Shown piece by piece: positions 3,001-58,182 of a DNA stretch of 64,000 nt (within the stretch, counting starts at the first letter, position 1; the number at the start of each line of letters is the position of its first letter). Made by a program: the position numbers and the translations under genes. The notes under the pieces were generated by a model. It saw nothing but the letters and a program-made list of their open reading frames with translations. It searched no databases and was not told the DNA's origin. This DNA comes from an uncultured Planctomycetota bacterium. GTDB taxonomy: Bacteria > Planctomycetota > UBA1135 > UBA2386. The stretch is from assembly GCA_963823025.1 (NCBI GenBank), contig CAWGKH010000021.1:17955-81954 (forward strand), written 5' to 3'.

Positions 3001-5921
3001 TCAGCGTGTAACCGCCGCTCCCGCTGCAGGTGATCGTCGCCGGGGACCCGGCCTCACCGAGCGCGGTCAGGCCGCCGGTCGCTGCGATCGCGACCACCGC
3101 GGTCGGCTCGAACGTGATCCGTCCGCCGACGCCGATCTCGAGGCCTCCGGCGATCGGCACGCTGTCGTCGTCGACCTGGAGGTCGAGGTGATTCGTGCCG
3201 ACGTCGAGCACGGCGGGCGTGTCGATCAGGAGATGCGTCGTCTGGATCGTGACGTCGGTGCTGCCGAGGCTCCGACGGCCGCCGAGGAGCCGCAGGTCGG
3301 TGAATTGCACCGGCTGCCCGGCCGTGGATTGCGACACCGCGCCATCGCCGGTGAGCTCGACGCGGTTGGCGACGACGTAGTTCGTGTCGGTGAGCCAGTC
3401 GCCGCCGCAGCGGAGCACGGGCTGCGCACCGCTGGCCGTGGTGCCGGCGAACGTCACGTTGCCCGCGACGTCGATCTCGCCACCGGCATAAGTCGACAGC
3501 GAGCCACCGAGCAGGTCGGCGTTGCCACCGACCGTCAGCGTGTGGCCGTAGCGCGTCTGCAGATCGCCGGAGACCAGCGTCACGTCGCCGGTCACCGTCA
3601 CCTCGCCGCCGACCCACATCGCGCCGCTGTCCTTCTGGATCTCGACGCTCGGGATCGTGCCGCCGAAGTCGCCCCGCTGGGTCGTGTCGCACACGAAGTG
3701 CCCGGTCGTCGCCACCGCACCGCTCAGATCCAAGCTCGCGCCCACGTGGTGCGTGCCGTTCGCCAGCGTCGCCGTGCCGCTGAGCTGCAGGTTGCCCTCG
3801 ACGTCCACCAGCGTCGAGCCGCCGTTCAACGTCCCGCCGGCGACCAGGCTGCCGGCCACCGACAGGTCGCCCGACGCCGTCGTCAGCGTCCCGTCCACCG
3901 TCAGCGAGCCGCCGATCGTCGGATTGGTCGCGAATGTCACCGATGCGCCGCTCGCGACCGTCACCTCGTCGAACCACGGGCCGCTCCCGCCCACCGACTG
4001 CGCCGCCGTGCCGTCGAACACCACCTGGCCGTTGGTCGGCTGGTAGCTGCCGTCCGCGGTCCAGTTCCCACCACACCGCAACGTCGGCTGTGCACCGCTC
4101 GCCGTCGTCCCGGCGAACGTCACGTGGCCGCCCACGTCGATCTCGCCACCGGCGTAGGTCGACAGCGTGCCGCCGAGGAAGTCGGCATTGCCACCCACCG
4201 CCAGCACGTGGCCGTAGCGCGGCTGCAGGTCACCGGAGACCAGCGTCAGGTCCCCGGACACCGCCACCTCGCTGCCGATGAACACGCCCCCGGTACCCTT
4301 CTCCACCCGCACCTCGGCGATCGGCGACGACGACGCCAACGACATCGTGTTGGCCTGGTCGAGCACCATCACCCCGCTCATCACGAGCGACCCCGAGATC
4401 GACACGTTCGATCCGAACGTGTGGGTCAGGCCACCGAGGTCCAGACCGCCGGTCGACGTCAGCGCACCGTTCACGTCGAGCGCCTGCGCCGACGCATCGA
4501 GGCTGCCCGACACCGTCAGCGTGTCCAGCACCTGCAGCGGCGAGCCCAGCGTCACCGCGCTGCCCGACGCCACCTCGACCCGGTCCAGCCGCAGCGGACT
4601 GCCCTGCACGGTCTGCCCTGCGGTGCCGTCGAACACCACCTGGCCGTTGGTCGGCTGGTAGCTCCCGGCCTGGCTCCAGTTGCCCGCGCACCGCAGCGTC
4701 GGCTGCGGACCACTCGCCGCGGTGCCGGCGAACGTCACGTGGCCCGCCACCTCGATCGTGCCACCGTAGTAGACCGACAGCGTGCCGCCGAGGAAGTCGG
4801 CGTTGCCGCCCACCGTCAGCGTGTGGCCGTAGCGCGGCTGCAGGTCACCGGAGACCAGCGTCAGGTCCCCGGACACCGCCACCTCGCTGCCGATGAACAC
4901 GCTCCCGGTGCCCTTCTCCACCCGCACCTCGGCGATCGGCGACGACGACGCCAACGACATCGTGTTGGCCTGGTCGAGCAGCATCACCCCGCTCATCACG
5001 AGCGACCCGGAGATCGACACGTTCGATCCGAACGTGTGGGTCAGGCCACCGAGGTCCAAGCCGCCGGTCGACGTCAGCGCACCGTTCACGTCGAGCGCCT
5101 GCGCCGACGCATCGAGGCTGCCCGACACCGTCAGCGTGTCCAGCACCTGCAGCGGCGAGCCCAGCGTCACCGCGCTGCCCGACGCCACCTCGACCCGGTC
5201 CAGCCGCAGCGGGCTGCCCTGCACGGCCTGCCCCCCCGTGCCGTCGAACACCACCTGGCCGTTGGTCGGCTGGTAGCTCCCGGCCTGGCTCCAGTTGCCC
5301 GCGCACCGCAGCGTCGGCTGCGGACCACTCGCCGTGGTGCCGGCGAACGTCACGTGGCCCGCCACGTCGATCGTGCCACCGGAGTAGACCGACAGCGTAC
5401 CGCCGAGGAAATCGGCGTTGCCGCCCACCGCCAGCGTGTGGCCGTAGCGCGGCTGCAGATCGCCCGAGCTGAGCGTCAGGTCCCCGGTCACCGTCACATC
5501 GCTGTTGATCTGCACCGACCCGCCGCCGAGCGCGATCCGGAGCTCACGAACACTCCCGGCACCGGCGAATTGGCGAGTCGCCGTGCCGGCGAAGGCCACG
5601 ACCCCCGCGCCGGCGAGTGCACCGTTCACCGTGAGGTTGCCGTAGACGTCGAGCGTCAGCCCGCCGCCGACGTCGACACTCGCACCGGTGTCGACCGTCA
5701 ACGTCCGAACTGCGGCAGCGGTGGCCGCGACGGACGGAAGGAACGGCGTCCCCGCCGGGATCGTGGCGTCGACCGAGGCGCTCGGCACGCCGGCCGACCA
5801 GTTGGCAGGGTCGCTCCAGGCAGTGCTGGTGGCGCCGGTCCAGGTCGTCTGACCGGGGGCCACGGCCGCGGCGACGAGTGACGAAGACGGTGAAGAAGAA
5901 CGGGCGGAGGGCGAGGTGCAT
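1..5921 (-). CDS. Giant secreted/surface protein (adhesin-like): beta-helix-like repeats, FN3-like domain, four Ig-like repeats, CARDB-like domain; 3' end lies outside the window; +1 frame break near 5879
   Basis: ATG at 5921 gives MHLALRPFFFTVFV. The frame starting at 5878 continues LVAAAVAPGQTTWTGATSTAWSDPANWSAGVP and reads without a visible stop to position 1 (about 1960 aa). It is G/T/V/S-rich beta-strand sequence with repeated L(V/A)FGTxP...D.YGN...G.ATF.D Ig-like units. It is missing from the ORF track because no stop falls in the window; the + strand ORF 170..5881 is its antisense shadow. Confidence 0.85.
1150..2370 (-). repeat. Four degenerate Ig-like domain repeats of about 100 aa
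   Basis: LAFGTPP / LVFGTAP / LVFGTPP / LAFVSEPP followed by G(I/L/V)ATF(A/D)D recur at about 305-bp spacing (near 2345, 2040, 1735, 1425). Confidence 0.75.
3420..5490 (-). repeat. Intragenic tandem repeat, about 615-bp (205-aa) unit: two near-identical copies plus a diverged copy and a partial copy
   Basis: The motif gtggccgtagcgcg (peptide PRYGHTL) recurs near 3541, 4207, 4822 and 5437. Shadow ORFs 4278..4661 and 4893..5276 are almost identical and offset by 615 bp. Confidence 0.9.
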
Positions 5922-6082
5922 GGGGTTCCCGAAGCGAGAAAGTCAGCGTCAACAGCCCTGCGGTCCCGGCGCGCCGGCCGGTCTTACAGGCGATTTCGGC
6001 GGATTCGCCGAGGGCCCGATCGCGCCGGCGTGCCGTCGTTCGTCTGGACACGGCCCCGAACGGGCCCGACGATGGTCGGTGG

Positions 6083-6703
6083 ATGCCCCCGCCCCTCGAC
6101 ACCACGGCGCAGGTCCGCCGTGCGATCGCCGGTGACATGCAGAGCCTCGAATGGCTGGTGGAGCGGTTCTCCCCGGGGCTGCTCGCCCAGGCGCGCTACC
6201 GGATGGGACCGGACCTCGCGCGGCTCGTGGACCCCCAGGACGTCGTCCAGGACGCATGGGCGATCGCGATCCCGAAGCTCCACGAGCTGGCGATCGAAGA
6301 CCGCCGGGCGACGCCGATCACGCTCAAGTTCCTGACGTCGATCGTCCTGTTCCGCACCAACCACCTGCTGCGCGCCCACATCCGCCGCACCGCCCAGCGA
6401 AGCACCGAAGACGCGGATGGGCTACCGGCGCGGGAGGACGGTGCGCTGACCACCGCGATCCGGCGGGAGACCGTGCAGATCGTGCTCGATCAGCTCGAGG
6501 CGCTCGACCCGGCGGATCGCGAGGTCCTGATCCTGCGCGGACTCGAGCAACGGCCGGGCAAAGAGGTCGCCGAACTGCTCGCGACGTCCGCGGATGCCAT
6601 CTACGTCCGCTACCACCGCGCGATCCGGCGGCTGCGGGCGGCCCTTCCCGGATCGCTGTTCGCCGATCCGGCGCTGGCCGATCCGGACGGGACCGCGAGC
6701 TGA
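6083..6703 (+). CDS. ECF-type RNA polymerase sigma-70 factor (planctomycete type)
   Basis: Region 2 motif LARLVDPQDVVQDAW; region 4 motif LDPADREVLILRGLEQRPGKEVAELL...RYHRAIRRLR. Confidence 0.9.
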   Translation: MPPPLDTTAQVRRAIAGDMQSLEWLVERFSPGLLAQARYRMGPDLARLVDPQDVVQDAWAIAIPKLHELAIEDRRATPITLKFLTSIVLFRTNHLLRAHIRRTAQRSTEDADGLPAREDGALTTAIRRETVQIVLDQLEALDPADREVLILRGLEQRPGKEVAELLATSADAIYVRYHRAIRRLRAALPGSLFADPALADPDGTAS

Positions 6704-47250: not shown

Positions 47251-48779
47251 TCACTTCAGTGGGCCGCAGATCGCCTCGACCGCACGCAGGAGCTCGCCGG
47301 AGGAGACGAGCTGCTCGGCGGCGCGCAGATCCGGCGCGAGGAAGCGATCCTCGGTCAGTGGCGGCACGACCTCGCGGATCGCCGCGTACGCCGCCTCGAC
47401 GCCCCGTCCGGGGCGCAGCGGTTCGCCGCAATCGAGTCCGGCGGCGGCGCTGATCAGCTCGATCGCGAGGACGCGCGCGGTGTTCTGCACGACCTGCGCC
47501 GCGTGCCGCGCCGCGGTCACGCCCATCGAGACGTGGTCCTCGCGGTTCGCCGACGTCGGGATCGTGTCGACGCTCGCCGGATGGGCGAGCGTCTTGTTCT
47601 CCGAGGCCAGCGCCGCGGCCACGACCTGCTGGATCATCAGCCCGCTCTCGACGCCCGGATCCGCGGCGAGGAATGGCGGCAGCCCGGAGATGTCCGGGTT
47701 GACGAGGTTCTCGGTGCGGCGCTCGCTGATGTTCGCCAGCGTGGCGACGGCGATCTTCAGGTAGTCGAGCGCCTGGCTGACCGGCTGGCCGTGGAAGTTG
47801 CCGGCCGAGACCACGTCGCCGTTCGGGAACACCAGCGGGTTGTCGGTGACCGAGCTCGCCTCGGTCTCGAGCACGCCGCGCACGAACGCCGAGCGCGTCC
47901 TTGGCCGCGCCGTGCACCTGCGGCGCGCAGCGCAGCGAGTAGGCGTCCTGCACCTTTCCGCAGCCGGCGTGGCTCGGGATGATCCGCGAGCCGCGCAGCA
48001 GCGAGCGGAGGTTGGCCGCGGTCCGCTGCTGGCCCGGGTGCGGGCGCACCTCGTGCACCGCGCGGCGGAACGGACCGGGCCGAGCCCCTCAGCGCCTCGA
48101 GGGTGGTCGCGCACGCCACGTCCGACGTGCGGCTCAGGATCGTCGCGCGGTGCAGCGTGACCAGGCCGATCGCGGTCATGATCTGCGTGCCGTTGATCAG
48201 CGCGAGCCCCTCCTTCGCCGAGAGCTCGACCGGCGCGAGACCGACGCGCGCGAGCGCGCGCTTCGACGGCATCGCCTTGCCGTCGAAGAACACCTCGCCC
48301 TCGCCGATCAGCGGCAGCGCCATGTGGGCGAGCGGGGCGAGGTCGCCCGATGCTCCGACCGAGCCCTGCGACGGGATCCACGGCACGATGCCAGCGTTGA
48401 ACATCGCGATCATCGCGTCGACGAGCCCGGTCCGGACCCCCGAGCACCCGCGCGCGATCGCGTGGATACGCAGCGCGAACGCCAGACGGCTGACGTCGAC
48501 CGGCAGCGGGTCGCCGACCCCGGTCGCGTGCGAGAGCAGGAGGTTGCGCTGCAACGTCCCGAGCTTCGCGAGCGGGACGTTCACGCTCGCGAGCTTGCCG
48601 AAGCCGGTGTTGACGCCGTAGACGACGCGGCCCTCGTCGATCGTCGCCTCGACGACGCGCCGCGAGGCGGCGATCCCGCGGCGCGCGTCAGCCGGGAGGC
48701 TCACGCGCGCGTCCGGCAGGGACAGCGAGATCCAGGTGTCGAGCGGGTGGTTCTTCGTGCCGAGGGGGATGGGAGTCAT
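47251..48779 (-). CDS. hutH: Histidine ammonia-lyase with two +1 frame breaks (near 48074 and 47890)
   Basis: YGVNTGFG and the MIO motif [11 protein letters not shown] in the first frame; RPHPGQ...[15 protein letters not shown] in the second; TDNPLVF...GNFHGQP...[11 protein letters not shown] in the third. Confidence 0.93.
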
Positions 48780-48828
48780 GGTTCGGATCGGAGGACCGCC
48801 GGGTCGATCCCCGAGGATGCCGTCCGGA

Positions 48829-51519
48829 TCAGAACCGCGACAGCGAGAAGAACAGTTGCTGGGTGCGGTCGGTCTCCTCGCGGAGGATCGGCCAGCCGAG
48901 GTCCAGGGCCAGGGGGACGTTCAGGAGCGGGAGCTGCAACCGGATGCCGAAGCCGGCGCTCAGCCGCGGCGGACCGAGGTCGTCGATGCCGAGTCCGAGC
49001 ATGCCGAAGTCGGTGAACACGACGCCACGGAGGACCTCGGTCTCGCGGAGCTGCCCCTCGCGGCGGGTCGAGAAGATCGGGAACTGGTACTCGAGGCTCG
49101 ACAGGATCCGCGCTTCGCCACCCGTCGGGTTGCCGAACTGCGACGGTCCCGCCCGGCGCTGGTCGAAGCCGCGCAGCGTGCTGCCGCCCATGTAGAAGCG
49201 CTCGGTCAGGTAGAGGAAGTCCGAGCTGCCGAACGCGTGCCCGTAGTCGAAGCGGTTGCGCCACCGCAGGACGTGCGCGCGGCCGAGCAGGTCGCGATGG
49301 AGCGGCACGAACTGCGTGTAGGCGAGCCCGGTCTTGTAGAAGTCCTGGTCGGCACCGAACGGGCCGCCGACGAGTTCGCCGTAGACGTCGAGCTGCATGC
49401 CGGCGCTCGGCGCCAGCGCCGAGTCGGTCGTCTGGTAGTCGAGGTTGAGCCTCACACCGCGCATCTCGGTCTGGCCTTCGGACTCGAAGACGATCGTCGG
49501 TGCGTTCGCGTCCGGATTGGTGATGTCGACGGTCTCCTGGCGGATCGACAGGCCGGCCGACAGCTGCTCGCTGAAGTTGCGCTGCAGACCGAGCTGGAGA
49601 CCGAGCGAGTCCTGCTCGTAGCTGTCCCAGAACTGCAGGCGCTTGTACCCCTGCACGCGCAGACCGATCGTGTCGAAGTGCTGGCGGAACAGGTCAGGCT
49701 CGTAGAACGAGATCGAGAACAGGCTGATCTCGGTGCCCGGCGCGAGCATGAGCTCGAGGTCCTGGCCGGCGCCGTGGAACGCCTTGTTGCTGCCGATCTC
49801 CTCGAACCAGTCGACCGGATTGAGGCTCGTCGGCAGGCGCGTGAAGTCGAAGTTGCGCTTCGACAGCACGAATCGCGCCTGCACGCCGGTCGCGGTGCTG
49901 ACGCCGGCCCCCCACAGGAACGATCCGGTGTCCCCCTCGCTGACGTCGATCGCGAGGTCGAGCTTGTCCGGCTCGCCCTTCACCGGCAGCAGCTCGAACA
50001 TCACGCCGCTGAAATCCTCCGGGTCCTGGAGGTACCGGAGGCCGTCGAGCGCGCGCTGCGACCGCTCGACCTCGGTCATGTCGAGGATGTCGCCGGGCAT
50101 CAGGAACACCTTGCGCCGCACGACGCGATCGCGCGTGTAGGTGTTGCCGCGGATCACGACATCGTGCAGGTGCTTCGGCGTGCCCTCCTCACAGACGAAC
50201 GTCAGGTGGATCTCGGCCTTCTCGATGTCGAAGCGCTCCGCGGGATCGCCGATCTTGAACGCGTTTTCGATGCCGCGCCCGTACCGCCCGAACAACGGGT
50301 GCCCGCGTCGCCCGTAGAAGTCGATGATCGCCTGTCGGTCCTGCTGGACGAGCTCGTAGTCGTAGTCGTCGCCGGGCTTCATCTTGACCTCGGCGAGCAC
50401 CTGCGACTTCGGGTAGAGCGGCTTGTCTTGACCGGGCGGCGGCACCTGCAGGAGGTCGATGCTCGCGATCTTGTAGCGGCGCCCCTCGACGACGCGGATC
50501 GTCAGGTCGACGGCGGTCCAGTCGGCATTGAACACGAGGTTCGCGAGCTCGACCTCGGCGTCGCGATAGCCCTTCCGCCGGTAGAAGAAGCGCAGACGAT
50601 CGAGATCCTCCTCGACGATCTCCTCCGAGTAGGCATCCCCGTGCAGGATCCCGGCCGGACCGCTCGCCAGCTTCGCACTGCCGATCAGGTTCTCGGAGAA
50701 GCCGAGCGGCACCCAACCCGGGAAGGCCTGGTTGCCGACGAAGTGGATCTGACCGATCGTGACGTAGTTGCCCTCGTCGACCCAGAATTCGAGCGTGTTG
50801 TCGTCGGGCTTCTCGACGATGCGCACCTCGGCGAACGGGTAACCCTCGCGGTGATAACGATCCTTCAACGTGGCCGCGTACTGCTCGGCGGCGCGACGAT
50901 TGATCCGCTGTCGCGCGTCGATCCCGAGCAGCGCCCGCACCTCGCGCTCTTTGAAGTGGTCGAGACCGTGGAACTCGAAGCGGTCGAACGATCGCGACTC
51001 GTCCACGAAGAAGAACACGCGGATCCCGCCGGACACCGGCTCGAACTCGAGCGAGCGCGTGTAGATCTTCAGTCGCTGCCACAGCGTGCGCATGTCGTCG
51101 CGCGCCACGGAGTCGGAGAACGGCTGGCCCACCTTGGTCTTGATGATGCGCAGGATGGTGTCGGCGGACGTCGCCGGCTCGATGCGGATGTCGACGACGG
51201 TCTTGCCCTCGGCCTCGCTGTGCTGCGCGGCCTGCGCGGCGCCCGGCTGCTGCGTGTTCGGCTGCTCGGGCTTCGGCTGCTCGGGCTTCGGCTCCTGGGT
51301 GCCCGGCGGCTCTGCACCCGGCTCCGGCGCACCGGGTTTCGGCGCGGCCGGCACCGGCTTGATCGGCTCCTGCTTGGTCGCGTCCGGCCGGACCGGCTCC
51401 GGATCGTCCTGCGCCGCGCACGGCACGTGCGACAGCCACGCGACGACGAGCACGGCGGCAGCGACGACGCGCCAGAGCGTCCGGACTCGCCCGCGCGACA
51501 CGGCAGGCGGTCCGCTCAC
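48829..51519 (-). CDS. bamA: Outer membrane protein assembly factor BamA (Omp85)
   Basis: Signal peptide, Pro/Gln linker, POTRA motifs (YRRKGYRDAEV, GNTYTRDRVVRR), ERFYMGGSTLRGF, SAGFGIR, terminal Phe. Confidence 0.9.
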   Translation of the reverse strand: MSGPPAVSRGRVRTLWRVVAAAVLVVAWLSHVPCAAQDDPEPVRPDATKQEPIKPVPAAPKPGAPEPGAEPPGTQEPKPEQPKPEQPNTQQPGAAQAAQHSEAEGKTVVDIRIEPATSADTILRIIKTKVGQPFSDSVARDDMRTLWQRLKIYTRSLEFEPVSGGIRVFFFVDESRSFDRFEFHGLDHFKEREVRALLGIDARQRINRRAAEQYAATLKDRYHREGYPFAEVRIVEKPDDNTLEFWVDEGNYVTIGQIHFVGNQAFPGWVPLGFSENLIGSAKLASGPAGILHGDAYSEEIVEEDLDRLRFFYRRKGYRDAEVELANLVFNADWTAVDLTIRVVEGRRYKIASIDLLQVPPPGQDKPLYPKSQVLAEVKMKPGDDYDYELVQQDRQAIIDFYGRRGHPLFGRYGRGIENAFKIGDPAERFDIEKAEIHLTFVCEEGTPKHLHDVVIRGNTYTRDRVVRRKVFLMPGDILDMTEVERSQRALDGLRYLQDPEDFSGVMFELLPVKGEPDKLDLAIDVSEGDTGSFLWGAGVSTATGVQARFVLSKRNFDFTRLPTSLNPVDWFEEIGSNKAFHGAGQDLELMLAPGTEISLFSISFYEPDLFRQHFDTIGLRVQGYKRLQFWDSYEQDSLGLQLGLQRNFSEQLSAGLSIRQETVDITNPDANAPTIVFESEGQTEMRGVRLNLDYQTTDSALAPSAGMQLDVYGELVGGPFGADQDFYKTGLAYTQFVPLHRDLLGRAHVLRWRNRFDYGHAFGSSDFLYLTERFYMGGSTLRGFDQRRAGPSQFGNPTGGEARILSSLEYQFPIFSTRREGQLRETEVLRGVVFTDFGMLGLGIDDLGPPRLSAGFGIRLQLPLLNVPLALDLGWPILREETDRTQQLFFSLSRF

Positions 51520-51574
51520 GCGGGCACTCCGCGGCGCACCGCGGCCCGTGTGTGGTGTCTCGCCCGGGCAGGGC

Positions 51575-52927
51575 TCACGGCAGCGGCTCCGGCCGGCGTT
51601 GGTAGCTCTCGAACCGCATGTACTCGCGAAAGAACTTCAACGTGACGTCGCCGGTCGGGCCGTTGCGCTGCTTCGCGATGATGAGCTGCGCGAGGCCGGC
51701 GTTCTCTTCGGTGCGTCGATAGTACTCCTCGCGGTGCAGCAGCACGATGACGTCGGCGTCCTGCTCGATCGCCCCCGACTCGCGCAGATCGCTCATGCGC
51801 GGTCGGTGGTCCTCGCGACCTTCGACGTCGCGGTTGAGCTGCGACAACGCGATCACCGGCACCTCGAGCTCGCGCGCCAGCCCCTTGAGCGCGCGCGAGA
51901 TCGTCGCGATCTCCTGCTGCCGGCTCTCGGCGCGCTTGCCGATCGTCATCAGCTGCAGGTAGTCGATGACGATCATGCGGATGTCATGCTGCTGCTTGAG
52001 GCGCCGGCACTTGGCGCGGAGCGTCGTCGGCGTCAGACCGGCGGCATCGTCGATGAAGATCGGGGCCTCGTACAGCAACGCCGCCTCGTCCTGGAGCCGC
52101 TTGTACTGCTGGTCGGTGAGGCGGCCGCGGCGCATCGCCTGACCGTCGACCTGGGACCGGCAGCACAGCATGTTCGAGATGACCTGCTGCGCCGACATCT
52201 CGAGGCTGAACACGACGACTCCCTGGCCGTGCGTGGCGACGCGTTCGCAGAGGTTGAGCGCCAGCGACGTCTTCCCCATCGACGGTCGGGCCGCGACGAT
52301 GATCAGCTCGCCCGGCTGGAGGCCGCCGGTCATCTCGTCGAGGTCGGGGAAGTGCGACATCACCCCGGTCGGCTCCCCCTGCCGCGAGCGGAAGTAGTCG
52401 ATGCGCTCGAAGGTCTGCTGCAGCACCGACTCGATGCTCTTGACCTCGTCGGCGACGTTCATGCGGGCGATCTTGAAGATCTTCTCCTCGGCCTCCTCGA
52501 GGAGCTGTCGCGCGTCGTTGGCGTTCTCGTAGGCCATGCGCGAGATGTCGAGGCAGATCTCGAGGAGCTGCCGCTGGATCGACTTCTCGCGGACGATCTC
52601 GGCGTGGAAGCCGACGCCCGCCGCCGACACCACCGCGTCGAGCAGCGCGAGCAGCGCCTCGCGGCCGCCGACCTCGTCGAGCCGCCCGAGCCGCGACAGC
52701 GACTCCTCGACGGTCAGCACGTCGGCCTGCGCCTGGCGGTCGTAGGTCTCGAGGATCGCGTCGAAGACGACCCGGTGCGCGGGCACGTAGAAGTCGCCGC
52801 TCTTCAGCACCTGGCTGACGTCGGCGATCGCGTTGGGATCGAGGAGGAGCGCTCCGAGGACGGAGCGCTCCGCGTCCACACTCCGCGGCACGCCGCGGCT
52901 CTCCGTCGTTGGGCTGAAGTCGACCAC
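51575..52927 (-). CDS. dnaB: Replicative DNA helicase
   Basis: AERSVLGALL, AARPSMGKTS, FSLEMS, IDYLQLM, ALSQLNR, SDLRESGAIEQDAD, AKQRNGPTG. Start is GTG 52927 or ATG 52966. Confidence 0.97.
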   Translation of the reverse strand: MVDFSPTTESRGVPRSVDAERSVLGALLLDPNAIADVSQVLKSGDFYVPAHRVVFDAILETYDRQAQADVLTVEESLSRLGRLDEVGGREALLALLDAVVSAAGVGFHAEIVREKSIQRQLLEICLDISRMAYENANDARQLLEEAEEKIFKIARMNVADEVKSIESVLQQTFERIDYFRSRQGEPTGVMSHFPDLDEMTGGLQPGELIIVAARPSMGKTSLALNLCERVATHGQGVVVFSLEMSAQQVISNMLCCRSQVDGQAMRRGRLTDQQYKRLQDEAALLYEAPIFIDDAAGLTPTTLRAKCRRLKQQHDIRMIVIDYLQLMTIGKRAESRQQEIATISRALKGLARELEVPVIALSQLNRDVEGREDHRPRMSDLRESGAIEQDADVIVLLHREEYYRRTEENAGLAQLIIAKQRNGPTGDVTLKFFREYMRFESYQRRPEPLP

Positions 52928-53106
52928 GCTCTCGAGCCCTCCCTGGTTCGTCGGACGATCCCGCATCGACGACGCGCCGCCACGGGAACGGAGGAGTTTG
53001 CCGCCAGAACGCGGCGACGTGCAAGCACCGATCGAAAGGGTCTCGCGCGGTGCGCGCGCGAAGGTCGGTGGAGAGTCTCGTGGAATCTGGTGGAGACGTG
53101 CGCGGC

Positions 53107-54702
53107 TCACGCGCCGCGATCGATCACGCGCCCGCTGGTCGCACCGGCCTCGCACTCGACGACGCCGCGCCGCGCGAGCTCACCGAGCAGGTCCACCGCC
53201 TCGTCGTGCGACACGCGCAGGCGACGCTTGAGGAAGTTCACGCTGGCGCGGCGGTACTCGAGGACCAGTGCCTCGGCCTCGGTGACGAGCTCCTGGTCCG
53301 ACGCACCGGTGGCGAACAGGGACTTCTGTCCGCTCGGCCGGGGCACGAGCCACGACGCGTCGCCCTCGGCGGCGGCGTCGTCGATCGCGGCCACCGTCGG
53401 CTCGTCGACCATCGGCTCGTCGACCGCATCGGCATCGATCGCGTCGACCTCGTCGTCCGCGTCGACCTCGGCGTAGCCCGCGTCGACGTCGTCGTCGGCA
53501 TCGACCTCGGCGTAGCCCGCGTCGTCGTCGTCCTCGAGGTCCGCTTCGTCCGCCGCGACGACCGCGTCGTCGTGCCGGTCGTCGTCGATCTCCGCATCGT
53601 CCGGATCGCTCGCCGCCAGGATCTCCGCGCCCTCGGCGGGATCCTCCTCGGCCTCCTCCGCATCCTCGGCGTAGACCTCGTCGTCGATCTCCTCGTCGTC
53701 CGCTCGCTCGTCCTCGAAGACGTCCGCGTCCTCGAAGACATCCTCGTCCTCGGCGAGCGCGTCGTCCGCATCGGCCGCCGCCGGCTCGTCGGGGTCCTCG
53801 TCCTCCTCGGCGTGGGCGTCCTCCCCGGCGTAGGCCTCCTCCGCGTCCTCCCCGCCCTCGTCGACGACGTCGTCCGCGGCGTCGTCGTCCGCGGCGAGGG
53901 CACCGGCGTCCGCCGCCGCCGCCGGCTCGTCGTCGGCGTCCTCCTCCTCCTCCTCATCATCGTAGCGGCGGCGCCACCGCCGGTCGCGGCCACGTTCCTC
54001 GAACTCCGTCACGACCTCGTCGACCGCGCGGGCGAGCTCTTCGTCGTCGATGACGATGGTGTCCGACAGCTCGTCGTCGGCGTCCGGCTCCGGCGCCTCG
54101 AGACGCAACGATTCGAGCTCGGCGACGGCCTCGGTCTCGACCCCACCGCTGCTCCGCGGCTTCGCGCTCACCACCTCACCGGCGACGCCGCGCGCCAGCC
54201 CCTCGAACTGCCGGTAGAAGAAGAAGTCGGTCGCGAGCGCCAGCGACGCGAGCGAGGCCAGCGCGACCAGCAGGATCGACAGTGTCGTGCCGAGCACCGC
54301 GCTGAGCCGCACCGCGAAGAACGCCCCCACCGTTCCCGCGGACGCCGGCACCGTGCCGTCGACGCGGAGGCTGACGAGGATCGACAGGCAGAGCCCGAGC
54401 GCACCGATGCGTGCGAGCCGGATCCACGGCCGGTCGATGCGGCCGGTGAGGAACGCGATCGAGCTCCAGGCGAGCACGAGCACGGCCATCATGAACAGCG
54501 GCTCGAAGCCGATCCGGTCGTAGATCGCGACGACCAGTCGGGCGAACAGACCGTCGTCGTCGACGGCGACGGCACCGCGCAGGCGGAACCAGGTCAACGC
54601 CGAGACGAAGAAGCCGGAGACCGCGATCGGAACCAGGGGCCATGCCCAAGGGGGGAAGCGCCCGACGCGCGCCTCCCCGTTCGCGAGGAACGGTGCAGTC
54701 AT
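53107..54702 (-). CDS. FtsK-related protein: 4-TM region, very acidic linker and FtsK-gamma winged helix, no ATPase domain
   Basis: Four TM helices with AGTVGAFF...ATDFFF paralleling GGAFGANL...ATEWLL of the neighbouring ftsK; about 250 aa D/E-rich linker; C-terminal ELVTEAEALVLEYRRASVNFLKRRLRVSHDEAVDLLGELARRGVV; no Walker motifs. Confidence 0.8.
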   Translation of the reverse strand: MTAPFLANGEARVGRFPPWAWPLVPIAVSGFFVSALTWFRLRGAVAVDDDGLFARLVVAIYDRIGFEPLFMMAVLVLAWSSIAFLTGRIDRPWIRLARIGALGLCLSILVSLRVDGTVPASAGTVGAFFAVRLSAVLGTTLSILLVALASLASLALATDFFFYRQFEGLARGVAGEVVSAKPRSSGGVETEAVAELESLRLEAPEPDADDELSDTIVIDDEELARAVDEVVTEFEERGRDRRWRRRYDDEEEEEDADDEPAAAADAGALAADDDAADDVVDEGGEDAEEAYAGEDAHAEEDEDPDEPAAADADDALAEDEDVFEDADVFEDERADDEEIDDEVYAEDAEEAEEDPAEGAEILAASDPDDAEIDDDRHDDAVVAADEADLEDDDDAGYAEVDADDDVDAGYAEVDADDEVDAIDADAVDEPMVDEPTVAAIDDAAAEGDASWLVPRPSGQKSLFATGASDQELVTEAEALVLEYRRASVNFLKRRLRVSHDEAVDLLGELARRGVVECEAGATSGRVIDRGA

Positions 54703-54853
54703 CTGGAAACCTCCCGGCGCCGGAACCCCGTGACGCGCTCGCGCCGCGAAGCCAGGCGACCGCCCAGTCGGTCGGGCCCGATGCTATCCACGGAGCGGGG
54801 CGCGCTCCAGGAGCTGTCGCGAACTCGTTCGCGCGGGTGGCGGGATCGCCGGC

Positions 54854-57511
54854 TCATCCGGATGCCGGATCCTCCGCATCCTCGTCGGCATCCGCGTCCG
54901 GCCCGTCGTCCGACGCCTCGCCCTCGAGCGCCGCCAGCTCCTCGTCCATGGCCGCCTCGCGCGCCCGCCACTCGTCGACCGTCATCAGGACGTCCCGCGA
55001 CTTCGAGCCGACGAAGGGTCCGACGACACCGTCTTCCTCCATCATCTCGAGGAGCCGCGTCGCCCGCGTGTAGCCGACCGACAAGGCCCGCTGGATCAGC
55101 GTCGCCGACCCGCGCTGCTGCCCGAGGATCACCTCGACGGCCTGGTCGTAGAGGTCGTCGCGGTCCTTGAGCCCGCGCTTTCTGCCGGTCTCGGTCTGGA
55201 CGAGCTCCGGCAGGAAGTCCGGCCGCGGCCCATGCTCCTCGAGGAACGACACGACCCCGTGGGTCTCCTCCTCGGACACGAACGCCCCCTGCGCGCGGCG
55301 CATCTGGTGGGACGTCGGCGACACGTACAGCATGTCGCCGTGGCCGAGCAGCTTCTCGGCGCCGTTCGAGTCGAGGATCACGCGCGAGTCGATCTTGCGG
55401 TTCACCTTGAACGCGATCTGGCACGGCAGGTTGGCCTTGATCACGCCGGTGATGACGTCGGTGCTCGGACGCTGGGTCGCGAGGATCACGTGCAGGCCGA
55501 CCGCACGGGACTTCTGCGCGAGCCGCTGGATCGACTCCTCGACGTCCTTCTGCGCGACCGTCATCAGGTCGGCGAGCTCGTCGATGACGATCACCATGTA
55601 GGGCAGGTGTGCGTCGGCCGGATCGATCGGCTTCTGCAGGCGCTGCTCGATCTCCTCCTGCCCGAGCTTGTTGTAGCTCTTGATGTGGTTGGTCCCGACG
55701 GCGGACAGGAGCTGGTAGCGGCGCTCCATCTCCTCGACGGCCCACTCGAGCACCGCCGGGGCCTTCTTCATGTTGGTGACGACGTCGCAGGCGAGGTGCG
55801 GCACGCGGCCGTAGGCCTGCAGCTCGACCATCTTCGGATCGATCAGGATCAGCCGCACCTGCTGCGGCGTCCGCGTCATCAGGATCGACAGCAGGATCGC
55901 GTTGATGCACACCGACTTGCCCGAGCCGGTCGTGCCGGCGATCAGCAGGTGCGGCATCTTCGCGAGGTCCTCGACGATCGGCTCGCCGGCGACGTCACGG
56001 CCGAGGAACAGCGGGATCGCCCGGTCCTCGGCGTGGCCGAACTGCTCGAGCAGCTCGCGCATCACGACCATCCGGCGCCGGACGTTCGGCACCTCGACGC
56101 CGACCGTGTCCTTGCCCGGGATCGGCGCGACCACGCGCACGCTGACCGCGCGCAAGGCGGCCGCGAGGTCGGCCTCGTAGCTGGTGATCTTCGAGAGCTT
56201 GATGCCCTCGCCGAGCTTGACCTCGTACTGCGTGACCGCCGGCCCGACCGACGCCGCGACGACCTTCGCCTCGACCTTGAACGACCCGAGCCGCTGCTCG
56301 ATCGCGGCCTTGTTCGTGTCGAGCGTCTTCTGCGTCGTCTCGGTGTCGCCGTCCTCCGGCTCGCGGAACAGCTCGATCGGCGGGAACGGGTAGGGATGGT
56401 CGAACGGCAGCCCTTGCTGGCGCGCGTCCGTCGCGCGCGGTTTGCGGCGAGCCTTCTGCCTCCGGCGCTCGCGCGCGGCGGCGGCGTGAGGACGATCTCC
56501 GGTTCCTCGGGTTCGGGCTCGGTCGTCGGCGTCGAGCTCCTCGACCTCGGCGAGCTCGACCTCCTCGTGAGGTTCCTCGGGCTCGGGTTCCTCGGGCTCC
56601 GGCTCGGGCTCGGGCTCGTCGACGTCGGCCGGCTCGGGTTCGACCGGCTCGGCGCCCGCCGCCGCGATCTCCGCTTCGGCCCACTCGTCCGCGACGTCGA
56701 CGTCCTCCCGCGCCGCGGGCTCGTCCTCGGCTGCGACCACGGGCTCGCCGCTTCACCCGAGCGCCGCAACGCGTCGGCGGTCCGCCGCCAGGCGGTGCGC
56801 AGCGCGACGAGCCCGAAGCGCGACGGCCGCGCGGGCGCGGCTCGCCGTCCGCCTCGTCGTCGCTCCTCCAGCGCACCCTCCGCGGTCGCGGGCTGCACGA
56901 ACGGCCCACCGAGCCGGCGGAGCGCCGGCCTCGACCAGCTCGCCGAACCGGAGCACCGCGGTCGACAACAGCCACTCGGTCGCCAGCACGAACGAGCACG
57001 CGGCGCCGAACAGCAGCAGCAGCACCCGCCCCGAGCCGCCGAACGCGCGGAGCAGCTTGGGCGAGAGGTTCGCGCCGAACGCGCCGCCCGGCCCCTGTGG
57101 CGCGAGCCGCGACGGCGCCGCGTCGCCGAACGGCCCGGCGAACAACAGCGCCAGCATCGCCGCGAACACGACGATGCCGAGCGTCTTCAGCACCAGCCGG
57201 TCGACCGGCCGGCCGACGAACAGCAGGAGCCCGTAGATCACGGCGCCGAAGCACGGCACGAACGCCGCAAAGCCGAGCGTGTAGGTCAGCCCGAACGCGA
57301 TGCCGTAGCCGACCGTGCCGCCGAGGTTGGTCAGCCCGCCGCGCGGGATCGCACCGTCGATCGGCGCCGGCTGGAACGTCGCCAGCGCCAGCAGCGCGAA
57401 CACCGCCAGTCCGACGATGCACAGCGCGATCAGCTCGCGGCCGCGCGGCCCGAGGCCCGGACCCGGGACGTCCTCGACCGGCACGAAGCGTGGGCCCTTC
57501 TTGCGGCTCAA
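54854..57511 (-). CDS. ftsK: DNA translocase FtsK with several indels in the linker (about 56460-56930)
   Basis: 4-TM N-terminus (NLGGTVG) in ORF 56753..57688; motor (MPHLLIAGTTGSGKS, IDELADLM, LATQRPS, GAEKLLGHGDML) and gamma domain (LIQRALSVGYTRATRL) in ORF 54854..56740. Confidence 0.92.
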
Positions 57512-58182
57512 CCGGATGCCTCCTCGCGCTTCTGCTTGTCCTCGAGCCGCGCCACCGCGAGCGCGACCAGCCGCTCGGCGACCGCGGCCTTCGGCGCCGG
57601 CCCGAAGGTGTCGCACACTCCCTTCGCGTCGAGCACGATCACGCGGTTCTCCTCGGCACCCATCGCGGTCGCGGCGTTCAGCACACACAGGTCGAGCCGC
57701 TTCTGGGCGAGCTTGTCCGCCGCGCGCGCGATCGCATCGTCGGGGACCGCGGTGTCGAACACCTCGAGCGCGAAGCCGACGACGAGCTGCCGTGCGCGCT
57801 TCGCGCGGCCGAGGGCGGCGATGACGTCGGGGTTCGCGGTCAGCTCGATCGGCGCGCCGAGCTCGGCCTTGGACGGCTTGCCGCGCCGGCGCTTCGCCGG
57901 CCGGAAGTCCGCGACCGCGGCGACGCCGAACGCGATGTCGTGGTCGGCGAACGCCGCCACCGCCCGGTCGTGCATCTCCCGCGCCGAGACCACGTCGATC
58001 CGGTCGACGCCGGCTGGGGTGTCGAGCGCGGTCGGCCCGGAGACGAGGAGCACGGGGTGCCCGGCCCGCGCCGCTGCCGCAGCCAGCGCGTAGCCCATGC
58101 GCCCGCTGCTGGCGTTCGCCAGGTAGCGGACGTCGTCCAGATACTCGTGCGTCGGACCGGCTGTGATCAGCAGGCTCGGCAT
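57508..58182 (-). CDS. coaB: Phosphopantothenoylcysteine synthetase (stand-alone CoaB domain)
   Basis: LITAGPTHEYLDDVRYLANASSGRMG, AAVADFRP, VVGFALE, KRLDLCVLN. Confidence 0.9.
   Translation of the reverse strand: MPSLLITAGPTHEYLDDVRYLANASSGRMGYALAAAAARAGHPVLLVSGPTALDTPAGVDRIDVVSAREMHDRAVAAFADHDIAFGVAAVADFRPAKRRRGKPSKAELGAPIELTANPDVIAALGRAKRARQLVVGFALEVFDTAVPDDAIARAADKLAQKRLDLCVLNAATAMGAEENRVIVLDAKGVCDTFGPAPKAAVAERLVALAVARLEDKQKREEASG

Follow-up and report, generated by a model that had tools for sequence, protein, structure and literature searches.

A conserved motor-less FtsK paralogue with a candidate sliding-clamp motif, encoded beside ftsK in uncultured Planctomycetota

The FtsK protein of Escherichia coli and Pseudomonas aeruginosa is composed of the FtsK_4TM, FtsK_alpha, FtsK_SpoIIIE and FtsK_gamma domains, with a long variable linker. 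Partial paralogues may accompany the full-length translocase: SftA of Bacillus subtilis is a soluble FtsK/SpoIIIE paralogue in which the motor is kept and the membrane anchor is missing. For the gamma domain, residues R1300, E1303 and E1306 of the E. coli recognition helix are reported to contribute to the recognition of KOPS (PMC2680272). Contacts with XerD are attributed to Q1288, R1289, R1292, I1293, G1294 and N1296 (PMC5052618, Table 1); among them R1289 is described as the one that matters most for activating XerD in E. coli, and a short gamma peptide fused to XerC is reported to be enough for some activation (PMC5052618).

A second group of proteins relevant to this work are the clients of the beta sliding clamp, such as Pol III alpha (internal motif QADMF), Pol IV and Hda, which carry a disordered Q-x-x-L-F type pentapeptide beside a folded domain. 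The motif is defined as Q-phi-x-[L/M]-[F/L], where Q, L and F weigh most and position 2 is tolerant (PMC11139829). The text of this clamp review makes no mention of a membrane-anchored clamp binder, the word 'membrane' occurring 0 times. A 2025 study is relevant to the division of Planctomycetota without FtsZ: ftsK is reported there as the sole essential gene of the dcw cluster in Planctopirus limnophila, and FtsK as critical for divisome assembly in Chlamydia (PMC12283558).

The window analysed here, a stretch of 64,000 nucleotides from an uncultured planctomycete, contains at 53107..54702, on the minus strand, a gene (X531) which ORF, domain and homologue analyses define as coding for an FtsK-derived, motor-less paralogue of 531 aa with 4TM and gamma domains. 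The frame starts with ATG and has zero internal stops; 151 nt separate its ATG (54702) from the stop of the ftsK motor ORF (54854). Downstream lies dnaB (Pfam DnaB_C 354.8 bits, DnaB 102.8 bits), whose longest ORF spans 51575..53155 on the minus strand, the true start being probably further in. A previous sequence-only reading of the window had described an uninterrupted ORF without ATPase domain, located downstream of ftsK and before dnaB, and was confirmed on both points. Matches to the alpha/beta RecA-type ATPase motor (PF17854 and PF01580, Walker A/B) and to Pfam FtsK_SpoIIIE were absent from X531, and FtsK_SpoIIIE was absent from all of its 24 aligned relatives as well. Likewise, a HMM built on 12 neighbouring FtsK motors detected a motor in 0 of 153 proteins of the X family, and in none of the best 150 matches. 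Between the two end domains, the AF2 model predicts two short helices in a linker and a disordered stretch of about 200 residues. A NCBIfam scan of X531 returned 0 families; a promoter and terminator scan of 52800-55000 returned 0 and 0 sites, and is uninformative on operon structure.

X531 therefore shares with FtsK the 4TM domain, the gamma domain and a long variable linker, and differs from it in the missing alpha/beta motor, in the polyacidic nature of the linker, in a Q..LF motif preceding gamma and in the replacement of R1300, E1303, E1306 and R1297. Both SftA and X531 are second, partial FtsK paralogues found beside a full-length translocase, but X531 represents the opposite truncation, as the anchor was kept and the motor lost.

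The upstream ftsK (54854..57688, minus strand) is present in the window as two in-frame ORFs, because an in-frame TGA at 56753-56755 splits it into a 4TM part (56753-57688) and an alpha/beta/gamma motor part (54854-56740). In 11/11 relatives, and in the closest relative L037, ftsK is a single open frame. Sequencing data were available as 3 DNA runs of one study (5-8% of words), with no RNA among the runs listed; of the short contigs derived from these runs, many 90-95% alike, none bridges the TGA.

The membrane domain of X531 (aa 17-170, 54193..54654, minus strand) was delimited by hhalign, AF2 and hydropathy, the latter detecting hydrophobic segments within it. When tested as a single sequence it scores 19 bits with Pfam FtsK_4TM (PF13491), under the 23.1 cut-off, and the same model matches 12/24 relatives at E<=0.01. 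The FtsK-like 4-TM region previously proposed is nonetheless well founded, since the comparison of a profile of 14 X-family members with a second profile, built on 12 FtsK N-domains of those genomes, gave a hhalign probability of 98.8% (E 7e-17) over 156 columns spanning all helices. In the AF2 model pLDDT is mostly 85-95, with helices at 23-42, 66-86, 92-111, 124-137 and 139-158. An ESM Atlas features search gave an FtsK_4TM likeness of 0.93, and no taxonomy for the X family; a Foldseek search of the domain against PDB gave nothing credible, only low-probability rows for BAR-domain and other membrane proteins. This domain is the best conserved part of the protein, with G65, W79, G123, G126 and D159 invariant in the X family.

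With a profile of the N-domain alone, 1.84 billion cluster representatives were searched, a word-index search having been swamped by the acidic linker (11 matches, 8000 candidates). The profile matched 448 representatives at E<=1e-3, 200 at E<=1e-10 and 133 at E<=1e-30; the relatives of X531 are all uncultured MAGs. Members of the X family were found in 36 of the 39 sampled genomes of the taxonomic family of the host (G000 not counted) and in two further families, i.e. in 3 of the 8 families sampled in the order. The gamma domain is present in 121 of 126 X-family proteins of at least 380 aa, indicating that the C-terminal module is also under selection, and in 122 of 123 cases the X profile gives it a higher score than the FtsK profile does. 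In a tree of 4TM domains, a branch with SH-aLRT 86 sets the 12 FtsK sequences apart, and the X proteins of the host's own family form a clade of 11 (99); the separation of FtsK from X implies that the paralogy predates the family.

The gene order is largely maintained. Eight of 15 fetched loci show the order coaBC-like, ftsK, X, dnaB, bamA, and in 3 more ftsK and X are adjacent, with no dnaB or bamA match downstream. Among 45 loci of named MAGs, ftsK is directly upstream of X in 24 of the 36 with enough flank, and dnaB is downstream in 29 of 34; in 7 more MAG loci only the gamma part of X was matched, with an ftsK motor 1.5-2.2 kb upstream. The architecture is thus not unique to this assembly, and recurs mostly in the order ftsK-X-dnaB. 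A literature search on FtsK paralogues and planctomycete FtsK gamma, covering titles and the beginnings of abstracts, showed no motor-less FtsK paralogue among the papers listed.

These data also bear on the hypothesis that X531 is the decaying remnant of a tandem ftsK duplication, devoid of a function of its own. Its position beside ftsK, the lack of a catalytic part and a low-complexity linker with a recent 39-bp repeat would fit this explanation. It is nevertheless very unlikely, with a practically negligible chance of being right: 133 representatives at E<=1e-30 conserve both end domains, the gene occurs in 36 of 39 sampled genomes of the family and in two further families, and none of the 14 loci inspected has an interrupted frame. 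The X family also has a distinct conserved sequence signature.

The C-terminal domain (aa 465-526, 53125..53310, minus strand) was characterized by Pfam, PDB sequence matches, AF2 and Foldseek. FtsK_gamma (PF09397) matches aa 469-522 with 33.7 bits, above the 30.6 cut-off, and matches 24 of 24 aligned relatives; phmmer against PDB retrieved solved FtsK gamma chains (2j5o, E 4.9e-4). The domain is modelled by AF2 with pLDDT of about 96, and the ten best Foldseek matches in PDB are all FtsK gamma structures, with TM-scores to the target of 0.66-0.83, so that the C-terminus is indeed a gamma winged helix, as first read.

The activities attributed to it in that reading, i.e. reading KOPS DNA and activating XerD as in FtsK, find no support in that form. 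At the positions of R1300, E1303 and E1306, X531 carries D, G and A, and the E. coli residues are kept in 14, 13 and 12 of 137 X-family members; among the neighbouring FtsK proteins the counts are 11, 10 and 9 of 11, the residue set being that of PMC2680272, which may not be a complete list of DNA contacts. R1297 is kept in 4 of 137 members, and the beginning of the recognition helix is mostly acidic in the X family. The KOPS-reading residues are thus replaced in about 90% of X members and kept by the neighbouring FtsK. A net charge of gamma, estimated by eye, was considered as a further argument and dropped, as it fails to distinguish X from FtsK.

The reading proposed at first, a membrane-DNA tether in which DNA would be bound directly by the gamma winged helix, in a KOPS-like or non-specific manner, appears quite improbable in the light of these replacements, and also because the domain is suspended from about 200 residues of polyacidic tether, which would repel DNA. 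In its favour speak the fold, which is shared with DNA-binding winged helices, the basic cluster Q-R-(R/K)-L-R that the X family conserves where helix 2 ends, and the FtsK-like recognition helix kept by more distant motor-less relatives. The relatives in question, L106 and L107 (family f31), L108 (f12) and L029 (f2), are other Planctomycetota proteins with 4TM, an acidic or disordered linker and gamma, encoded by open frames of 543-679 aa. Unlike X, they keep the recognition helix pattern GY..A..L..RLE and have no Q..LF. All five distant proteins fetched, these four among them, score 52-71 bits with the X N-domain profile, versus at least 92 bits for the X clade. For L029, the fetched flanks contain no match to the ftsK motor.

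The XerD-contacting residues show a mixed pattern. R1289 is kept in 132 of 137 X members, R1292 in 114 and Q1288 in 102, and the I1293 position is occupied by I or V in 126. The glycine of G1294 is found in only 14 of 137 members, being mostly replaced by D or S, and N1296 is missing from the seven commonest residues of its position, which account for 127 of 137 members and are mostly E, D or A. A protein that regulates Xer recombination or FtsK would be compatible with part of this pattern: the membrane-anchored gamma module would contact a recombinase of XerC/D type, or the motor of FtsK, with no reading of DNA, and would in this way activate or sequester dimer resolution at the membrane or set its timing. 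The conserved R1289, R1292 and I/V1293 positions argue for it, as do the partial activity of the gamma peptide-XerC fusion (PMC5052618), the vicinity of ftsK and the two XerC/D-like recombinases encoded in the host genome, which score 306.9 and 239.5 bits with the XerD model, both below the 329.6 cut-off. Such a regulator is still unlikely, given the changes at G1294 and N1296 and the conserved Q..LF, which it leaves unexplained; moreover, a second activator would seem superfluous next to a co-resident FtsK with a complete gamma.

The two end domains are joined by a linker (aa 176-455) in which 122 of 280 residues (44%) are D or E. Its most extreme part is an acidic disordered tether, identified by composition and AF2 pLDDT at aa 251-447 (53362..53952, minus strand), where D and E make up 96 of 197 residues (49%) and K and R just 2; pLDDT is <50 over aa 254-459. 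Neither the length nor the sequence of the tether is conserved among relatives. It includes a 39-bp tandem repeat, found by TRF at 53440..53532 (period 39, 2.4 copies, 92% matches, score 158; repeat pair 53448-53502 / 53487-53541), which encodes DAGYAEVDADD twice, at aa 394 and 407. The D/E-rich linker with its repeat is therefore as initially reported; the repeat lies within low-complexity sequence and is not conserved in relatives.

In addition, three short conserved motifs were recognized in the linker. A short helix follows the last TM helix (aa 187-201, 54100..54144, minus strand), with the family consensus GVE......L..L and an AF2 helix at 190-198. A basic patch at aa 237-247 (53962..53994, minus strand) corresponds to conserved RR....RR columns in alignment A1, where relatives show RR..(Y/F)..RR, and lies at the end of an AF2 helix spanning 220-250, with pLDDT 70-78. 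LVPRP, aa 452-456 (53335..53349, minus strand), represents the 'IPRP' motif of the family, in which P454 is nearly invariant in alignment A1.

These motifs, together with the membrane domain, bear on the possibility that X531 is a divisome scaffold, in which 4TM alone carries the function, like the FtsK N-domain in E. coli division, and the linker motifs recruit partners other than DnaN. The 4TM domain being the best conserved part, with five invariant residues, the three additional linear motifs and the lack of Q..LF in some members all favour a scaffold; so do the reported essentiality of ftsK in Planctopirus limnophila (PMC12283558) and the fact that FtsZ was not found in the host genome, which is 80% complete. 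The maintenance of gamma in 121 of 126 members of at least 380 aa speaks against 4TM acting alone, and a scaffold as the whole explanation has a rather small chance of being correct; it does not exclude the clamp-related function considered below.

The fourth linear motif is QKSLF, aa 459-463 (53314..53328, minus strand), a candidate beta-clamp-binding motif proposed on the basis of conservation, of its match within the lineage and of a modelled complex with DnaN. In X531 the segment has pLDDT 46-60. Of 137 X members, 112 have Q..LF in the 45 aa that precede gamma, versus 0.6 expected from shuffling of the same segments, and in 103 of them it lies 7 or 8 residues before gamma; elsewhere in the linkers it occurs 8 times in 33,312 positions. 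At the corresponding place, none of the 11 aligned gamma segments of neighbouring FtsK contains it. The motif is missing in 25 of 137 X members, and hence cannot be the sole function of the family. Given the fixed spacing of 7-8 residues, it could also be a structural extension of gamma or bind another partner.

Compared with the definition of the clamp motif, QKSLF satisfies Q, L and F, and has K, which is not aliphatic, at position 2, where the X family mostly has Q or G. The clamp motifs of the lineage show a similar deviation. The host DnaE carries GQGSLFG, aligned to the internal clamp-motif site of E. coli Pol III alpha (5fku); a search of 25 genomes yielded 22 DnaE segments, each of which carries GQ[G/K/A]xLF, with G, K or A at position 2, and the host DinB carries RQGMLFG. 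At the level of sequence, the X-family Q..LF thus has the same form as the clamp motifs of DnaE and DinB of its lineage. X531 differs from the known clients of the clamp in being an integral membrane protein of the FtsK lineage, without a catalytic domain and with a polar or small residue at position 2, and its binding is a predicted one.

A complex of X531 aa 440-531 with two DnaN chains was modelled in three runs, along with 3 controls. The score of 0.55 (runs 0.58, 0.53 and 0.55; best control 0.02) lends weak support to the pair, and does not refer to the position of the motif. At least 61% of contacts agree between runs, and the pLDDT of the partner is at least 68. In the calibration of the tool, 116 of 157 solved complexes and 2 of 215 mismatched pairs came up to the mark, and scores <=0.60 include 18 of the 157 solved complexes and both passing mismatches. 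The tool itself expects such a pass to be wrong more often than not, except where the pair was already likely. Since clamp-peptide complexes have already been solved, the pass may also reflect likeness only.

Taken as a whole, the evidence is best explained, tentatively and with a chance that falls a little short of even, by a membrane-anchored sliding-clamp tether acting beside FtsK. The analysis establishes the architecture, homology, conservation and synteny of X, the loss of the KOPS residues, and the conservation of the motif with its match in the lineage; that X binds the clamp, assembles together with FtsK and serves this role in the cell is what we infer. On this reading X531 is a functional, conserved FtsK paralogue, in which the alpha/beta ATPase motor was lost and a long disordered, polyacidic tether acquired. 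The 4TM domain would place it in the cytoplasmic membrane, probably beside FtsK or mixed with it. The acidic tether, of about 200-280 residues and repelled by both DNA and membrane, would let the C-terminal module reach into the nucleoid, where QKSLF could dock in the hydrophobic cleft of the beta sliding clamp (DnaN). Docking would link the replisome, or newly replicated DNA still loaded with clamps, to FtsK's site of action at the membrane or division site, and the winged helix, located at the clamp face, might provide a non-specific DNA contact or a protein contact. Of the tether initially envisaged, tethering would thus be retained, by way of a conserved motif of clamp-binding type, and sequence-specific DNA binding abandoned, the KOPS residues being replaced.

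As X is conserved and usually located between ftsK and dnaB, it is a credible candidate for a segregation or division factor where FtsZ is not found. This had also been suggested from the sequence: conservation and usual placement are substantiated, and the role itself is a proposal. A second, motor-less protein of FtsK type represents a concrete new candidate component for division without FtsZ, and, owing to the clamp-type motif, a specific link of replication to segregation or division can be tested in vitro using just two purified proteins, with no need for a cultured member. In a broader and somewhat unlikely extension, the X family would work as a 'fishing line': anchored with FtsK in the membrane of planctomycetes that lack FtsZ, it would capture clamp-marked, newly replicated DNA by its DnaE-like motif, coupling replication status to FtsK-dependent segregation and division. 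If true, this would be a physical link between replisome and divisome of a kind not described in bacteria.

In public annotation, one member of the family is named 'DNA translocase FtsK' and another 'DNA translocase FtsK 4TM domain-containing protein'; members are thus called translocases although they contain no translocase domain.

X531, the 531-residue motor-less FtsK paralogue (X for its family), is encoded at window 53107-54702 on the minus strand by a 531-codon ORF that starts with ATG and has no interruption, in agreement with the sequence-only reading. Its start lies 151 nt past the stop codon of the ftsK motor's ORF (54854-56740, minus strand); a coaBC-like gene lies upstream of ftsK, while X531 is followed by dnaB (longest ORF 51575-53155) and then by a bamA-like gene. 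Since the G+C content of the region is about 70-74%, long open frames are frequent on both strands, a 706-codon frame at 53050-55170 on the plus strand being one of them. Further long frames within 48000-58000 (up to 969 codons) that overlap real genes, either antisense to them or in another reading frame, were rejected as genes, being Arg/Ala/Gly-rich, as expected at 70-74% G+C. The X531 ORF is a real gene, because its homologues share both of its ends, the frame is open and two folded domains are confidently predicted. The X frame is open in 14/14 loci examined, and a dead remnant of an ftsK duplication is practically excluded.

The membrane domain spans residues 17-170. The AF2 helices (23-42, 66-86, 92-111, 124-137 and 139-158, pLDDT mostly 85-95) agree with the hydropathy segments. 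An FtsK-like 4-TM region, as previously read from the sequence, was recovered by a profile-profile comparison of 14 X-family N-domains with those of 12 FtsK proteins that the same genomes encode (156 aligned columns, hhalign probability 98.8%, E 7e-17), though X531 as a single sequence scores 19 bits against Pfam FtsK_4TM, below the cut-off of 23.1. An L-A-T-(D/E)-(F/W) motif closes the last helix in both X and FtsK, and a language-model look-up of X531 led to FtsK_4TM clusters (0.93). The C-terminal domain, residues 465-526, is the gamma winged helix that had been proposed: it scores 33.7 bits against Pfam FtsK_gamma (cut-off 30.6), matches in a phmmer search the gamma domains solved for FtsK of P. 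aeruginosa and E. coli, and is modelled by AF2 with a pLDDT of about 96; in the PDB, Foldseek's ten best matches are without exception FtsK gamma structures, over ~60 aligned columns with target TM-scores of 0.66-0.83. A gamma domain is found in 121 of the 126 family proteins of at least 380 aa, and in 122/123 the family's own profile gives it a better score than the FtsK gamma profile does.

The lack of an ATPase domain, also part of the sequence-only reading, extends to the family proteins searched. Neither FtsK_SpoIIIE nor FtsK_alpha was found by Pfam in X531 or in 24/24 aligned relatives, an NCBIfam scan returned no model for X531, and HMMs built from neighbouring FtsK proteins detected no motor in 153 family proteins, namely the best 150 of a profile search plus word-index matches. 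X is a paralogue built from two FtsK domains and, because no motor is found, is outside the translocase family in the functional sense. In public records its members are named 'DNA translocase FtsK 4TM domain-containing protein', 'DNA translocase FtsK' or 'hypothetical protein', and literature searches returned, among the listed titles and abstract beginnings, no paper on a motor-less FtsK paralogue.

For residue positions, X531 was aligned to the gamma domain of E. coli FtsK, in E. coli numbering. This numbering is the one we take to be right for the FtsK C-terminal sequence, its sole check being agreement with residues named in two papers. Identities in the alignment match every gamma residue named in the excerpts of PMC5052618 (R1280, R1297, G1318, Q1288, R1289, R1292, I1293, G1294, N1296) and of PMC2680272 (R1300, E1303, E1306). 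DNA contact was judged from the three mutated residues in the excerpt of PMC2680272, which are reported there to contribute to KOPS recognition in E. coli, plus R1297. X531 carries D, G and A at the positions of R1300, E1303 and E1306; among 137 family gamma domains R1300 is R in 14, E1303 is E in 13, E1306 is E in 12 and R1297 is R in 4, the corresponding counts for 11 neighbouring FtsK proteins being 11, 10, 9 and 11. R1289, reported in the excerpt of PMC5052618 as most important for XerD activation, is kept in 132/137 X domains and R1292 in 114/137; G1294 is G in only 14/137 (mostly D or S), and the N1296 position is mostly E, D or A. The X gamma domain retains helix 2's basic end, and the face of helix 3 that reads DNA is gone. 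It is unlikely that X reads KOPS, the DNA read by FtsK gamma and named as such in the sequence-only reading, in a sequence-specific way; a protein contact or a weak, non-specific DNA contact is possible. One rival explanation has X tether DNA directly. The other gamma function named there, XerD activation, bears on a second rival, a regulator of Xer/FtsK acting through the gamma surface: retention of R1289 speaks for it and replacement of G1294 against it. The window's genome encodes two XerC/D-like recombinases.

The two domains are joined by a linker (residues about 176-455) with 122 D+E among 280 residues; its core (251-447) has 96 D+E and 2 K+R in 197 residues, and pLDDT is <50 over residues 254-459. 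The D/E-rich character and the 39-bp repeat already seen in it were both found again. The repeat, at 53440-53532 (2.4 copies, 92% matches), encodes DAGYAEVDADD two times and is local to this genome's low-complexity tract. Linker length and sequence vary among relatives, and four short elements are conserved: a G-V-E-x6-L-x2-L helix directly after the membrane domain (187-201), a basic patch (237-247; relatives have RR..Y/F..RR), an (I/V)-P-R-P element (452-456) and a Q-x-x-L-F element (459-463, QKSLF in X531). A scaffold whose motifs bind other partners is a third rival reading.

The Q-x-x-L-F motif occurs within 45 residues upstream of gamma in 112/137 members, ending 7 or 8 residues before the first gamma profile position in 103 of the 112. 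Shuffling of the same 47-residue segments yields it in 0.6 members on average, and Q..LF is found elsewhere in the linkers 8 times in 33,312 positions. The commonest forms are QQRLF, QQQLF, QQKLF, QQSLF, QGTLF and QKSLF. The clamp-binding motif is given, in the excerpt of a review (PMC11139829), as Q-phi-x-[L/M]-[F/L], with Q and positions 4 and 5 most important, position 2 tolerant, and the internal QADMF of Pol III alpha as an example. The genome's own DnaE has G-Q-G-S-L-F-G at residue 929 of the open frame (L110, contig C6); in a phmmer alignment with entry 5fku it coincides exactly with E. coli Pol III alpha's internal clamp motif site, given as Q-L-D-L-F in the deposited chain. DnaE was searched in 25 genomes of the order, 15 of them of the same family besides the window's own, and G-Q-(G/K/A)-x-L-F is present in 22/22 DnaE segments (L112-L133). 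The own DinB-type polymerase has R-Q-G-M-L-F-G near its C-terminus. With flanks, the X motif reads S-G-Q-K-S-L-F-A in X531 and R-Q-(Q/G)-x-L-F-(G/A) in relatives; it is thus, flanks included, of the form used by the lineage's established clamp clients. Position 2 of the DnaE motif is a small or basic residue in this order, versus an aliphatic one in the textbook consensus.

Binding to DnaN, the beta sliding clamp, was modelled with residues 440-531 of X and two chains of the genome's own DnaN, both as alignments. The score was 0.55 (runs 0.58, 0.53 and 0.55; best of three controls 0.02), classed as weak support: the mark is reached by 116/157 solved complexes and 2/215 mismatched pairs, of which 18 solved complexes and both passing mismatches lie at 0.60 or under. 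Runs agree in at least 61% of contacts, with a partner pLDDT of at least 68. Because structures of clamp-peptide complexes exist, the pass may reflect likeness to them, and the model lends modest support to a guess already made likely by the DnaE/DinB comparison.

X is a conserved membrane protein, usually encoded between ftsK and dnaB, in which an FtsK-type anchor is followed by a long tether, disordered and acidic, a pentapeptide resembling a clamp motif, and a winged helix that is derived from gamma and lacks the KOPS residues. All functional statements on it derive from sequence and models; a search of sequencing runs listed no RNA run. The anchor would put X in the membrane, possibly with FtsK; the tether, whose core of 197 residues would measure about 75 nm if fully extended (0.38 nm per residue), would hold the C-terminal module off the membrane and clear of DNA; the Q-x-x-L-F motif would dock onto DnaN and so link clamp-bearing DNA or the replisome with FtsK's working site, and the winged helix would supply a second, weaker contact. 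As a whole, this membrane-anchored clamp tether is a tentative proposal, which we rate just short of probable; the regulator, scaffold and DNA-tethering readings are not all exclusive of it.

The architecture is not limited to this assembly. The N-domain profile matched 448 of 1.84 billion representative proteins at E<=1e-3, 200 at <=1e-10 and 133 at <=1e-30. A single-protein search of whole genomes found X in 30/41 relatives (22/24 of the same family). Over 201 genomes of the class, profile scores form two classes. Scores of at least 92 bits occur in 46 genomes, the own included, mostly in open frames of about 280-750 aa: 36/39 in the window's own family (own genome excluded), 6/7 in f7 and 3/3 in f8, with none in f2 (4 genomes), f5 (2), f6 (1), f9 (35) and f10 (109). 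The 18 matches at <=80 bits lie in open frames of 667-1183 aa, 9 of them on a contig that also has an X match about 2.8-3.3 kb away, and are read as the N-domain of FtsK itself. Among 301 genomes of the phylum, scores of at least 92 bits were restricted to the window's own family. All X members come from uncultured organisms; the 45 loci from a named genome collection are all MAGs (no cultured strains), labelled Planctomycetota or with inconsistent lower labels. Two X contigs are filed under non-planctomycete MAGs, Luminiphilus sp. (L058, with a planctomycete-like ftsK upstream of X) and Acidimicrobiales bacterium (L066, 2118 bp, holding no other match), labels likely due to mis-binning.

Four weaker matches outside the X clade were fetched and considered together with locus L029; one of them (L109) is cut by the contig end. 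The others, L106 (4404-6032) and L107 (3468-5132) from f31 and L108 (4025-5827) from f12, encode, like L029 from f2 (4538-6574), motor-less proteins of 543-679 aa with a 4TM domain, a disordered linker and gamma. Unlike the X clade, these proteins have retained a recognition helix resembling that of FtsK, and Q..LF is missing from them. Within the phylum the motor-less plan thus extends beyond the studied clade, and it may have arisen more than once. The duplication is older than the own family, because a 4TM-domain tree separates 12 FtsK proteins (SH-aLRT 86) from 11 own-family X proteins (SH-aLRT 99); the placement of the f7 and f8 X proteins and of the looser forms is without support in this tree, built by a quick method with a midpoint root only.

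The order coaBC-like, ftsK, X, dnaB, bamA is found in 8/15 fetched loci; a further 3, which belong to other families of the order, have ftsK-X without dnaB and bamA. Among the 45 named loci, by a strict rule, the ftsK motor lies immediately upstream of X, on the same strand, in 24 of the 36 with at least 3.2 kb of upstream flank, and dnaB directly downstream in 29 of the 34 with enough flank, so that the reported placement between the two genes is the usual one. In 7 further named loci, where the tblastn match covered the gamma part of X alone, the ftsK motor ends 1.5-2.2 kb upstream of that match, a distance that fits the N-part of X being in between. X occurs without ftsK in two own-family loci, one (L015, genome G008) keeping dnaB and bamA, the other (L017, genome G018) neither. 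Q..LF is absent from the G008 form and its close relatives P0002-P0004 and P0030, and present in the G018 form; in one sublineage the motif and the ftsK neighbourhood may have been lost together.

No match to FtsZ (TIGR00065) was found in the window's genome, which is 80% complete, so that this is no proof of absence. The own ftsK (54854-57688, minus strand) contains an in-frame TGA at 56753-56755, separating the 4TM part (ORF 56753-57688) from the linker and motor part (ORF 54854-56740), with a possible GTG restart 12 nt after it. The TGA may reflect misassembly, a genuine split of the gene or a pseudogene, and no available public contig extends across it; FtsK is one open frame in 11/11 relatives and in the closest relative (L037).
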